A stretch of 64,000 nt of DNA. Origin: Escherichia phage ph0021. The stretch lies in sequence record OP557970.1; one strand, 5' to 3'. Position 1 is the first letter of the stretch. The number at the start of each line of letters is the position of its first letter. The notes under the pieces were generated by a model. That model was not told the DNA's origin, did no database searches, and saw only the letters and a list, made by a program, of their open reading frames with translations. Made by a program: the position numbers and the translations under genes. Shown piece after piece: positions 1-10,640 of this stretch.

Positions 1-630
1 TCAACTGTAGGTGGATCTGTCATTTGGCATCAAGGAAATTTTCCATTGAATTCAGCCGGTGACGATGTACTCTACAAATCATTTAAAATATATTCAGAAT
101 ATAATAAACCACAGGCAGCTGATAACGATTTCGTTTCTAAAGCTAATGGTGGTACTTACACCGGTCCAATTACTATTAATTACGGGGTAAATAGTTATCT
201 TCAATTAAGTAATAATGAAACCCCCATTCGAATTCGTTCTGGTGGCGGTACCGGTAATACTCTTGTAGTTGGCGGCTCTTCCGGTGGTATTAGTTTTAGA
301 CCTGCAGGTAGTGAAATCACTACTGGACAAATTACCATTACGCCAGAAGGTTTGACAACATTTACCAGGGCTGTAACGGCTCCATCGGTAACTGTTACAT
401 CTACTCCTTCCGCAGCATCTGATGTTACTCGTAAAGATTATGTTGATGGAGCAATAAATACTGTTACAGCAAATGCAAACTCTAGGGTATTACGCTCTGG
501 AGACACTATGACAGGAAATTTAACTGCGCCAAACCTTTTTTCACAGAATCCTGCATCTCAACCTTCACACGTTCCACGATTTGACCAAATCGTAATGAAG
601 GATTCTGTTCAAGATTTCGGCTATTATTAA
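1..630 (+). CDS. 36: long tail fibre protein gp36, 5'-truncated at window edge
   Basis: Frame open from position 1 to stop at 630; sits immediately upstream of gp37 as in T4; first in-frame start in window is TTG at 46. Confidence 0.65.
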
Positions 631-638
631 GAGGACTT

Positions 639-3605
639 ATGGCTACTTTAAAACAAATACAATTTAAAAGAAGCAAAACTGCAGGTCAACGTCCTGCTGC
701 TTCAGTATTAGCCGAAGGTGAATTGGCTATAAACTTAAAAGATAAAACAATTTTCACAAAAGATGACTCAGGTAGTGTTATAGAATTAGGTTTAAAATAT
801 GGAGGAACAATTGATGGTTCTTTAACTGTTAATGGAAACATAATTGGAAATTTAACAGGTAACGCTGCAACTGCAACGAAATTAAAAACAGCACGAAAAA
901 TTAATGGTATATCCTTTGATGGGTCAAAAGATATCACGCTAACTCCATCTGACATAAATGTCAATAGCACAACGTTTATAAAAAATAACGGCGAATTACC
1001 TGTTGATGCTAATTTAGATGAGTATGGGCCTGTTGAAGAATATCTTGGAGTTTGGTCGAAAGCAACTTCAACCAACGCTCAACCAGCAAATAAATTTCCA
1101 GAAGAAAATGCTGTAGGTGTTCTAGAAGTATTTGTGGCCGGTCAATTTGCTGGTACTCAGAGATATACAACTAGATACGGAAATGTTTATATTCGTTCCT
1201 TGACTGCTACATGGAACGGAGTAAATGGTCCGTGGAGTGTGTGGCGAAATATTCAATCCGGTACTCGTCCACTGTCAACAACAATTGATCTTAATGATCT
1301 AGGAGGCGCTGAACACCTTGGTTTGTGGCGAAATAGTTCAAATTCCATTGCTACCTTTGACAGAAATTTCCCAGAAGAGGGGTCGTCAGCTCAAGGTCTT
1401 TTGGAAGTATCTGAAGGTGGAAACTATTCTCGTACACAAAGATATACAACCAGATTTGGAGTTGTTTATACTCGCTGTCTTACTGCTGCATGGGATGCAT
1501 CTGCGCCTAAATGGGGACCGTGGCAACAAGTCGGTAATGTCACACCGGCGACTTTCTATGATGGAGATCTGAATGATTTTAAAACTCCTGGGTTATATAA
1601 TATTTTAGGCACTGATGCCGTTATTAACTGTCCTACAGGTGAAGGTTTGCCGACTGTTATTGTTGGTTTGCTGGAAGTTAAACAGCGTGCTTCTGGCGGT
1701 GCTATTTTCCAAAAATTTACTACTGCCGGAACAGGTGCAACTACTCGCGATCGTATTTTTGAGCGTGCATATACTGGTGGTGCGTGGGGTGCATGGAACG
1801 AAGTATATACATCTTATTCTCTGCCAATTACTTTGGGTATGGGTGGTATTAAAGCTCAATTAGCGGAGTTAGATTGGCAAACCTTTGATTTTGTCCCTGG
1901 TAGTATGTTTAGTGTTCCTTTGAACAAAATAAAGAATATGCCCGCAAATATGGATTGGGGCACGATTGATGGAAACCTGGTTATGTTTTCCGTTGGTCCT
2001 AGCGAACACACTAGCACAGGACGTACTGTTCAGATTTGGCGTGGTACTGTATCCCAGACAAACTACCGTTATTTTGTCGTTCGTGTATTCGGTAATTCAG
2101 GAAATAGAACTTGCACAGTTCGTCGTGTTGTTCTTGAAGACGGATCACATACTTGGACTGCTAAACAAGATTTTAATGGCGCAGTTAACTTTAACTCTAC
2201 TGTTAACCTTAATAACACTACCACATTTAAAACAGAAGTTAAATTTCGCTCATTGAATGCATTCCGTATGTATGGCGGAAAATTTGGTACATTTTTACGT
2301 AATGATGGAGAGAGTCTTTATATTCTTTCCACCGACGAAGATGATCAAGATGGAAACTTTAATACAAATAGACCTTTCCGTTATGAATTAAGAACTGGTG
2401 ATGTTACTTTAGGTGGTATTAGTGGTGCTAACGTTTTAAAATTAAAACGTGATTCTCTCACCGCATTTTTTGGTGGTGATATTAACATGAAAGGCTTGAT
2501 GACTTTTGACGCCGGACGTTTAGGATCACGAGATTATTTTAAATTTAACCATTGGGGTGATAGTAATAATGCGCGTGATAACATTATTCAGTTAGAAGAC
2601 AGCAAAGGCGCTCATTTTTCCACTGAACGTACTTTAGCGACTGGTGCAATTAAGACTAAATTTTTTGGTGAAATTGAATCCGATGGTAAATTGGTTATTA
2701 AACGTCCGGGTGATTCTATTGTATTATCAGCACCTGCTAATAATTCTTTGCATATTCGCGGTGATATAGACGGGACTGGTAACTGGTATATTGGTAAAGG
2801 TGGTACTGATAATGGATTAGCGTTCTATAGTTATGCTACTAATGCTGGTGTATACATTACAAACGCAGGAGATATCTCGCTAAGTCCAAAGGGTGCCGAA
2901 ATGGCTCAGGTCAATAACGTTCGATTATATGTTCATGGTGAACGTTGGACCGCTAGTCAACCAGGTGATTGGGGCAGTCAGTGGCAAGTGGAAGCGCCAA
3001 TATTCGTCGATCATGGTTATGTTGGATCAGATAGCTATTATCCAATTATTAAAGGAAGAAGTGTAGTCACCAATCAAGGGTTTGTAACTGCCGTCGATCT
3101 TGGTATTCGTCGTGTCAATAACAATTGGGGACAAGCAATTATTCGTGTTGGATCTGCGGAGGCATCGCCAGCGGCTGGACACCCTAACGCGGTATTTGAA
3201 TTTCATTACGACGGTACTTTCTATTCTCCTGGTAATGGTAACTTTAACGATGTGTATATTCGTTCCGATGGTCGTCTTAAGATTAATAAAAAAGAGCTAG
3301 AAAACGGAGCACTTGAAAAAGTATGCCGACTGAAAGTTTATATTTACGATAAGGTTAAGTCTATTAAAGACCGTAGTGTTATTAAACGCGAAGTTGGTAT
3401 TATTGCTCAGGATCTTGAAAAAGAATTACCGGAAGCTGTGTCTAAAGTTGAAGTTGATGGATCTGATGTTCTGACAATTTCTAACTCCGCTGTGAATGCT
3501 CTTTTAATTAAGGCTATCCAAGAAATGAGCGAAGAAATTAAAGAATTAAAAACGCCTTTCTTCACTAAAATTGCTCGCAAAATTAGTAAATATTTTAAAT
3601 TCTAA
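639..3605 (+). CDS. 37: long tail fibre distal subunit gp37
   Basis: 988 aa ORF with SD, followed by gene 38 and holin t; internal triplicated repeat; C-terminal helical tail. Confidence 0.85.
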
Positions 3606-3611
3606 CAACAA

Positions 3612-3625
3612 GGGGCAACGCCCCC
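3612..3625 (+). terminator. GC hairpin (GGGGC-AAC-GCCCC) after gene 37
   Basis: Perfect 5 bp GC stem directly after gp37 stop, followed by CTTTGG; weak T-run. Confidence 0.35.
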
Positions 3626-3639
3626 TTTGGAGATAAATT

Positions 3640-4440
3640 ATGGCAGTAGTTGGTGTTCCTGGTTGGATTGGTAGTTCATCCGTAAATGAAACAGGACAAC
3701 GATGGATGAGTCAAGCGGCTGGTCAATTAAGATTGGGTGTTCCTTGCTGGATGAGTCAATTTGCAGGTCGCTCACGAGAAATTATTCATACACTTGGAGC
3801 AGACCATAACTTCAATGGTCAATGGTTCCGAGATAGATGTTTTGAGGCCGGTAGTGCACCTATAGTGTTTAATATTACAGGTGATTTAGTATCATATTCT
3901 AAAGATGTTCCTTTATTCTTCATGTACGGGGATACGCCTAATGAATATGTTGTTCTTAATATTCATGGTGGTGTTCATATGTGGGGTCGTGGTGGTAATG
4001 GTGGATACACTCACTCAGGAGGCGACGGTAACGGTACACAAGGCGGTCATGTTATTCAAAATGATATCGGCGGACGGCTTCGTATTTGGAACTACGGTGT
4101 TATAGCTGCTGGCGGTGGCGGTGGCGGTGGTATTGCATATCGTCCACACTCAGGGGCAAACTGGCAAGATATCGGTGGCGGTGGTGGTCGACCTTTCGGT
4201 GGCGCTGGCGGTGGCGGTTATTCCGGTGGTGCTGCTTCGTATGAAGGTCCGGGTGGTGGTTATGACTATGGTAACGCACACTCCGGCGCTGGTGGTAATG
4301 CTGGTGCTGCTGGTCAGAATGCATGGTCTGACGGCGGTAAAGTTCTTAAAGTTGGTGTTGGTGGTGCGTCTGGTCATGCAGTGTTTGGATCTTCTCCAAC
4401 TTGGGGTGTTGTTGGAACAATTTACGGACCAAGAGTATAA
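3640..4440 (+). CDS. 38: tail fibre adhesin gp38, T2-type (glycine-rich motifs)
   Basis: 266 aa, conserved N-terminus then several poly-Gly tracts (GGGGGGG, GGGGG) separated by variable segments; located between 37 and t. Confidence 0.8.
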
Positions 4441-4470
4441 TGTGAATAAATACCCTTAAAAGGAGGGTCT

Positions 4471-5127
4471 ATGGCAGCACCTAGAATATCATTTTCGCCC
4501 TCTGATATTCTATTTGGTGTTCTAGATCGCTTGTTCAAAGATAATGCTACCGGGAAAGTTCTTGCTTCCCGGGTAGCTGTCGTAATTCTTTTGTTTATAA
4601 TGGCGATTGTATGGTATAGGGGAGATAGTTTCTTTGAGTACTATAAGCAATCAAAGTATGAAACATACAGTGAAATTATTGAAAAGGAAAGAAATGCACG
4701 CTTTGAATCTGTCGCCCTGGAACAACTCCAGATAGTTCATATATCATCTGAGGCAGACTTTAGTGCGGTGTATTCTTTCCGCCCTAAAAACTTAAACTAT
4801 TTTGTTGATATTATAGCATATGAAGGAAGATTACCTTCAACAATAACTGAAAAATCACTTGGAGGATATCCTGTTGATAAAACTATGGATGAATATACAG
4901 TTCATTTAAATGGACGTCATTATTATTCCAACTCAAAATTTGCTTTTTTACCAACTAAAAAGCCTACTCCCGAAATAAACTACATGTACAGTTGTCCATA
5001 TTTTAATTTGGATAATATCTATGCTGGAACGATAACCATGTACTGGTATAGAAATGATCATATAAGTAATGACCGCCTTGAATCAATATGTGCTCAGGCG
5101 GCCAGAATATTAGGAAGGGCTAAATAA
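4471..5127 (+). CDS. t: holin t
   Basis: 218 aa, N-terminal TM segment, sequence matches T4 holin as remembered (MAAPRISFSPSDILFGVLDRLF...); strong SD AAGGAGG. Confidence 0.9.
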   Translation: MAAPRISFSPSDILFGVLDRLFKDNATGKVLASRVAVVILLFIMAIVWYRGDSFFEYYKQSKYETYSEIIEKERNARFESVALEQLQIVHISSEADFSAVYSFRPKNLNYFVDIIAYEGRLPSTITEKSLGGYPVDKTMDEYTVHLNGRHYYSNSKFAFLPTKKPTPEINYMYSCPYFNLDNIYAGTITMYWYRNDHISNDRLESICAQAARILGRAK

Positions 5128-10182: not shown

Positions 10183-10640
10183 TAATATGCCTGCAAAACG
10201 AATTTAAAATTATCAGCCAACATACGGTTCATTTCTTCAAGTGTTTGATACTCAGAATGATGATTACGAGTAAACGCTAAAGCTAACTGTCCTTTTCCAA
10301 ATCCCGTCGTCAGAGGTTTCATCTTAGAAGCAGGCAGATAAAATACTGCGTATGGAACATTGTTATTTGCAATAGTACGTGCAAGCTGAGACCGACGTTG
10401 ACGAATATGACTTAGAACTGCACTGAATCCTTGCTTAGAACGCTGATTACCTACATAAAATCGTGCAGACACGCATGGATTACTAAATGGACGACCATCT
10501 AATTTACTCACTAAAAAGTAAAATCCAGGTTTAGATAAAAAGTCTTTATGCGGAGTTCCCAAAAACCATTCACCGTTCTTGATTGTACCAATAACGGTAG
10601 CGCCAGCATTATTCAGATCAGTAGCAGTCATATATTTCAT
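10182..10640 (-). CDS. ndd: nucleoid disruption protein Ndd
   Basis: Track ORF is N-extended; real start at the ATG giving [13 protein letters not shown]... with SD GAGG; about 152 aa. Confidence 0.8.

Follow-up and report, generated by a model that had tools for sequence, protein, structure and literature searches.

The published architecture of gp38 comprises five glycine-rich motifs (GRMs) and four hypervariable segments (HVSs) (PMC3157838, PMC12032242). The glycine-rich motifs form a polyglycine-II sandwich, from which the variable loops are displayed to the receptor (PMC12892980, PMC12032242), and the structure 9V85 is that of the receptor-binding domain of PP01 gp38 (PMC12892980). In phage T6, amber mutants of gene 38 give virions of normal morphology that are unable to adsorb (PMC3157838), which supports a role of this type of gp38 in adhesion rather than in assembly. 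Ox2 binds the loops of OmpA, and FL08 and AV119, which lose infectivity when ompA is deleted, were classed as 'type 1' OmpA adhesins with a broader host range (PMC12032242). The gp38 of T4 differs in being 183 aa long, not glycine-rich and, according to its annotation, not a virion component, although its gene too lies between genes 37 and t.

We analysed gene 38 in a window of 64,000 nt, the whole stretch of Escherichia phage ph0021 DNA (OP557970.1) under study, and conclude that the gene very probably encodes the receptor-recognising adhesin gp38 of a T2/T6-type Tequatrovirus, in its Ox2 variant. The initial annotation had put a 266-aa gene 38 product at 3640–4440, and an open reading frame was found at exactly those positions on the + strand:

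639–3605, + strand: gene 37, T6-type distal half-fibre subunit of 988 aa, the partner of gp38 (PHROG 1699, 2.7e-224)
3640–4440, + strand: gene 38, ATG start, 266 aa plus stop (stop included in the coordinates), very probably a receptor-recognising tail-fibre tip adhesin
4471–5127: gene t (holin), open reading frame of 218 aa (Pfam T holin, 4e-117)

The locus has the T-even gene order (36-37-38-t-asiA-arn-motA), and the adjacency of gene 38 to gene 37 upstream and to the holin gene t downstream is as expected of a T2-type gp38.

Composition, family and fold of the gene 38 product

Glycine accounts for 69 of the 266 residues of gp38 (26%), at 12% over aa 1–115 and 36% over aa 116–266, with poly-glycine runs at aa 158–164, 179–183, 190–193 and 205–207. 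The GC content of the gene climbs to 55–59% at 4000–4400, while that of the flanks is 33–37%. Over the tract of glycine codons (4086–4459, both strands) lie four overlapping open reading frames of 52–114 aa in other frames (4086–4244 and 4115–4459 on the + strand, 4100–4324 and 4150–4377 on the − strand); we rejected them as genes and put them down to the GGN repeats combined with the local rise in GC. The reading of gene 38 itself as non-coding or as a low-complexity artefact is ruled out by the full-length profile, structure and homologue matches given below. In the spacer between genes 37 and 38 (3606–3639), a small GC-rich hairpin (GGGGC...GCCCC, about 3611–3628) lies just 5' of a GGAG ribosome-binding site; it was dismissed as a real element, its folding being no better than that of shuffled sequence (z = −0.45). 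Promoter-like and terminator-like matches near gene 38 occurred at chance level only.

Two Pfam profiles cover gp38 from end to end: Gp38_N (PF21721) at aa 1–42 (3.2e-19, 69.1 bits) and GP38 (PF05268) at aa 47–266 (2.5e-67, 227.3 bits, profile positions 1–218 of 218), both with a cut-off of 25 bits. PHROG 2056, 'tail fiber protein; host specificity', matches the protein at 1.8e-109, and its sequence matches to solved adhesins are 9V85, the PP01 RBD (3e-65), and 6F45_D of S16 (5e-43). An AlphaFold2 model built on 57 homologues (mean pLDDT 87.8) was compared with the PDB by Foldseek. The only significant matches were again 9V85 (E 4e-26; target-normalised TM 0.88) and 6F45_D (E 1e-20; TM 0.81), and beyond these two nothing fell under E = 2.5. 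The AlphaFold2 model predicts a three-part fold, made of an N-terminal attachment domain, a beta-helix and a polyglycine-II sandwich. Along the chain, pLDDT is low at aa 1–14, as would be expected of a segment that becomes ordered on its partner; it reaches 93–96 in the beta strands of aa 47–115 and dips slightly at aa 121–130, 171–180 and 231–240, positions that would fit exposed loops.

These matches bear on the alternative that gp38 is a T4-type product, that is, a non-virion chaperone that aids the folding of gp37 while the gp37 tip binds the receptor. All that the two proteins have in common is the gene name and the place downstream of gene 37, to which it may be added that several database records name homologues of gene 38 'distal long tail fiber assembly catalyst'. 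Against a chaperone, the profile and fold matches are to solved fibre-tip adhesins, and the gp37 of the window resembles T4 gp37 only over its first 66 aa and so is without the T4 receptor-binding tip. Homology to the T4 chaperone, the observation that would have told against the initial annotation, was looked for and none was detectable: T4 gp38 (NP_049864, from NC_000866) is without similarity to gp38 here, with a best BLASTP E of 3.7. We base this negative result on the direct BLASTP comparison because no Pfam model was found for T4 gp38 at E ≤ 0.01 and no NCBIfam model matched either T4 gp38 or gp38 of the window. A chaperone role is, in our assessment, hardly conceivable. The tip adhesin of T2 type that had been proposed from the sequence is borne out by the end-to-end matches to PF05268 and PF21721 and by PDB neighbours that are confined to the gp38 proteins of PP01 and S16.

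To delimit the segments of this adhesin, we aligned gp38 with those of Ox2, FL08, AV119, wV7, M1, FL18, T6, T2, PP01 and S16 and, separately, with about 57 database homologues. Five glycine-rich motifs (GRM1–5) separate four hypervariable segments (HVS1–4) in the C-terminal half. The positions of the receptor loops were transferred from the numbering of the PP01 crystal structure, a procedure that returned the correct end residues for each of the five published loops. The parts of gp38 are as follows:

aa 1–46, 3640–3777, + strand: N-terminal attachment domain of the T6 subtype, predicted to bind the gp37 tip (PF21721 at aa 1–42)
aa 47–115, 3778–3984, + strand: conserved N-terminal part of the beta-helix domain, predicted beta strands
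aa 116–122, 3985–4005, + strand: GRM1, GRGGNGG (G116, R117, G118, G119 and G121 invariant)
aa 123–134, 4006–4041, + strand: HVS1, equivalent of PP01 loop A
aa 135–156: conserved beta-helix stretch
aa 157–164, 4108–4131, + strand: GRM2, AGGGGGGG (G158–G162 invariant)
aa 165–178, 4132–4173, + strand: HVS2, equivalent of PP01 loop B, holds N174
aa 179–193, 4174–4218, + strand: GRM3, its end equivalent to PP01 loop C, holds G193 (G182, G183, P185, G187 and G190 invariant)
aa 194–215, 4219–4284, + strand: HVS3, includes the equivalent of PP01 loop D
aa 216–225, 4285–4314, + strand: GRM4, GAGGNAGAAG (G216, G218, G219 and G222 nearly invariant, G225 invariant)
aa 226–240, 4315–4359, + strand: HVS4, equivalent of PP01 loop E
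aa 241–248 and 249–266, 4360–4437, + strand: GRM5 and the conserved C-terminal strands closing the beta-helix (G242, G245, A247, V248, P253, W255, G259 and I261–G263 nearly invariant)

The predicted receptor loops are A (aa 122–130), B (167–176), C (191–194), D (209–214) and E (229–238). Across the roughly 57 homologues, invariant columns cluster at G116–G121, G158–G163, G179–G190, G216–G222 and G242–G245, and the HVSs are without consensus. The alternation of conserved glycine-rich motifs with variable segments, which had been remarked on at the outset as poly-glycine tracts alternating with short variable segments, is thus real and no accident of composition. The conserved N-terminal region described in the same annotation holds within subgroups only: over aa 47–115, 63–65 of the 69 residues are identical to those of T6, M1, FL08 and PP01, but only 26 of 69 to those of T2 and S16. 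The attachment domain (aa 1–46) is identical to that of T6 (46/46) and nearly so to that of M1 (44/46), but shares only 23–29 of 46 residues with FL08, AV119 and T2.

Relation to Ox2 and mosaic structure with T6

The closest characterised relative of gp38 is that of phage Ox2 (GenBank X05675, CAA29158), deposited as 'Bacteriophage Ox2 gene 38 for receptor-recognizing protein' and studied by the Henning laboratory in 1987–1991. The two proteins are identical at 264 of 266 residues and the genes at 795 of 801 nt (99.3%). As here, Ox2 gp38 has 266 aa and is followed by gene t, and the last 251 aa of the two gp37 proteins differ at 9 positions. Four of the six nucleotide differences between the genes are silent; the two coding ones give N174 (4159–4161; K in Ox2), in predicted receptor loop B, and G193 (4216–4218; R in Ox2), in predicted loop C. 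Position 174 appears to be a natural polymorphism, since K174 is also present in wV7 and CE1; N174 is found in FL08, AV119 and most close relatives. R193 occurs only in the Ox2 record of 1987, every other relative examined having G, and may be specific to that strain or an old sequencing error. A full-text literature search did not find the residue positions of the Ox2 host-range mutants Ox2h5, h10 and h12 (Drexler et al. 1989, 1991).

The hypervariable segments, which we compared with those of characterised adhesins as the initial annotation had proposed, are of the Ox2/FL08/AV119 type and unrelated to those of T6, T2, M1, PP01 and S16. Identity to Ox2 is 12/12 in HVS1, 13/14 in HVS2, 22/22 in HVS3 and 15/15 in HVS4, and identity to FL08/AV119 is 10/12, 12–13/14, 19/22 and 14/15; the corresponding values for M1, FL18, T6, T2, PP01 and S16 are 1/12, 0–2 of 14–17, 4–8 of 22–26 and 0–3/15. 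The GRMs stay conserved across all of these phages. FL08 and AV119 share all four variable-segment types with the window, but their N-terminal attachment domain is of another subtype (23–26/46). The PP01 (9V85) and S16 (6F45) adhesins have the beta-helix and polyglycine-II sandwich fold and the conserved GRMs in common with gp38 here, whereas their loops are wholly different (0–2 identical residues in HVS1, HVS2 and HVS4) and both bind OmpC, not OmpA. Three further relatives, all from phages of E. coli or Shigella, are as close as Ox2 or closer: VEc20 (265/266, S14A only) and Sf21 (264/266, S14A and V15A), both identical to the window over aa 116–266, and DalCa (265/266, V257A). The adhesin type assigned initially is therefore right and can be narrowed, as the protein is essentially the Ox2 adhesin itself. 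Neither the gene nor its kind is new: a nearly identical adhesin was described in the late 1980s, and the genome has already been deposited and annotated. Database labels for the homologues are inconsistent ('tail protein and peptidase', 'distal long tail fiber assembly catalyst', 'hypothetical protein', 'tail fibers protein'); the second of these is the name of the T4 chaperone.

Comparison with T6, whose adhesin is Tsx-specific, delimits a cassette within gene 38:

3966–4370, + strand: recombination cassette, in which nucleotide identity to T6 falls to 40–68%

Measured in 60-nt blocks, nucleotide identity to T6 is 92–98% at 3306–3605 and mostly 75–98% at 3606–3965; after the cassette it returns to 97–100% from 4431 into gene t, the DNA of gene t being almost identical in the two phages. 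At the protein level, T6 gp38 has the same attachment domain and 63 of 69 identical residues over aa 47–115, whereas all four of its variable segments are unrelated to those of the window (0–4 identical residues each). A T6-type fibre and attachment domain thus carry an FL08-type specificity cassette, in a clear recombination mosaic. The left junction lies at GRM1 and the right one near the conserved C-terminus, which fits the GRMs as probable sites of recombination, a property long described for the gp38 family. The exchange of this cassette on a T6-type fibre justifies the label of host-range hotspot that had been given to the gene, and the sharp boundary with T6 makes it a clean textbook case of cassette exchange at glycine-rich motifs.

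Predicted receptor and the Pseudomonas host label

Because the loops of gp38 are those of Ox2, FL08 and AV119, its receptor is probably enterobacterial OmpA, a prediction drawn from near-identity of sequence. In FL08, contacts of R165–A170 and D217 with OmpA were predicted in silico, from a model (PMC12032242). The segment equivalent to FL08 R165–A170 is R168–A173 here, in which R168, H170, S171, G172 and A173 of these model-based contacts are kept and V166 of FL08 is replaced by P169; D217 of FL08, likewise a contact predicted in silico, corresponds to N220. Some dependence of infection on the LPS core is possible, since Ox2 reportedly reaches full infectivity only with more than one host factor (PMC3157838). 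The value of the result is practical rather than conceptual: an Ox2/FL08-type cassette predicts OmpA as the receptor, and loss of ompA or variation in its loops is the predicted likely route to host resistance, which is useful in choosing phages for cocktails. The view that the segments present set receptor specificity, taken initially, is only roughly true: OmpA is bound by two sets of segments that are unrelated to each other (PMC12032242), and receptor use can change with only a few point substitutions (PMC3157838).

That a few residues are enough to switch the receptor in T6/PST (PMC3157838) is one reason to consider that gp38, while being an adhesin, has a working receptor other than OmpA (OmpC, an LPS core sugar or a Pseudomonas surface protein) by virtue of substitutions in its loops. 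Both residues that differ from Ox2 fall in predicted loops. N174 corresponds to PP01 K168, which is reportedly close to LPS sugars, and K168N lowers infectivity (PMC12892980); in addition, an identical genome has been deposited under a Pseudomonas host. Neither residue is peculiar to the window, however: N174 is the common state, the alternative K174 is shared by wV7 and CE1 with Ox2, and G193 is present in every relative examined, the odd one being R193 of the 1987 record. Furthermore, the whole receptor-binding part (aa 116–266) is unchanged in VEc20 and Sf21, for which E. coli and Shigella served as isolation hosts. We thus consider a receptor other than OmpA unlikely.

The Pseudomonas label stems from OR584013, 'Pseudomonas phage PsgM02F', which the window matches at 100% identity over its first 25 kb (zero mismatches at 10,440 directly checked positions) and probably over its whole length; the same 25 kb is about 96% identical to many Tequatroviruses of E. 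coli and Yersinia. PsgM02F was isolated and grown on P. syringae pv. garcae, plates on E. coli ATCC 25922 with an efficiency of 0.11%, and is the only Pseudomonas virus in the Tequatrovirus cluster (PMC10815195). Gene 38 is already annotated in OR584013 as 'tail fiber protein; host specificity'. ATCC 25922 carries an O-antigen, and low plating on it is no argument against the use of OmpA. Since aa 116–266 are identical to those of phages from E. coli (including K-12) and Shigella, the gp38 adhesin offers no basis for a Pseudomonas host, and label and adhesin do not match. If the host is real, an adhesin that shares its entire receptor-binding part with E. coli and Shigella phages would serve on it or be bypassed. 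Productive infection of a pseudomonad by a Tequatrovirus, whether gp38 recognised a Pseudomonas protein of the OmpA family, such as OprF, or was bypassed, strikes us as very improbable; mundane causes, either an error in the host assignment or contamination with an enterobacterium or coliphage, seem far likelier than true infection across orders. The contrast between an enterobacterial-type adhesin and the stated Pseudomonas host is the sole point of possible wider weight.

The gp37 partner and a proposed fibre tip

Over its full length, the gp37 of the window shares 90.8% identity with that of T6. Its likeness to T4 and T2 gp37 is limited to the first 66–67 aa, except that T2 gp37 is similar in the C-terminal chaperone region too. 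The motif YIRSD.RLK is present in it as in T2 and T6 gp37. The C-terminal region of gp37 is the following:

gp37 aa 877–988, 3267–3602, + strand: intramolecular chaperone domain, predicted to be cut off (Pfam Peptidase_S74 at aa 876–934, 5.2e-11)

It can be aligned with its counterpart in S16 gp37 (6F45_A). Given that known S74 domains are cut and that processing of T2 gp37 has been reported (Drexler et al. 1986, as cited in PMC3157838), we infer that gp37 would be cleaved after S876 (IRS|DGRLK), removing 112 residues and exposing the tip. In the mechanism that we propose, gp37 would trimerise with the aid of its own C-terminal chaperone domain, which would then be cut off after about S876, and a single gp38 would use its N-terminal domain (aa 1–46) to cap the newly exposed gp37 tip. 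The glycine-rich motifs of gp38 would pack as a polyglycine-II sandwich on a small beta-helix, a scaffold that would hold the variable loops outward to make contact with the surface loops of an outer-membrane protein.

Despite a gp38 that differs only at S14A, VEc20 has a gp37 whose distal module (about 200 aa, roughly aa 694–870) is unrelated to that of the window. The DNA similarity between the window and VEc20 (85–3168) is lost at 2673 and returns at 3245, at the chaperone domain. One attachment domain hence sits on two different mature gp37 tips, which is hard to reconcile with a simple lock-and-key fit between the gp37 tip and the gp38 N-terminus.

Two minor observations concern the wider family. 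A 303-aa protein from an E. coli assembly joins Peptidase_S74 to GP38 domains, as if the C-terminus of a gp37 had been fused to gp38. A cluster of 155 gp38 members is listed at NCBI as 'receptor-recognizing protein [Bacillus cereus]', most probably through phage contamination of an assembly.
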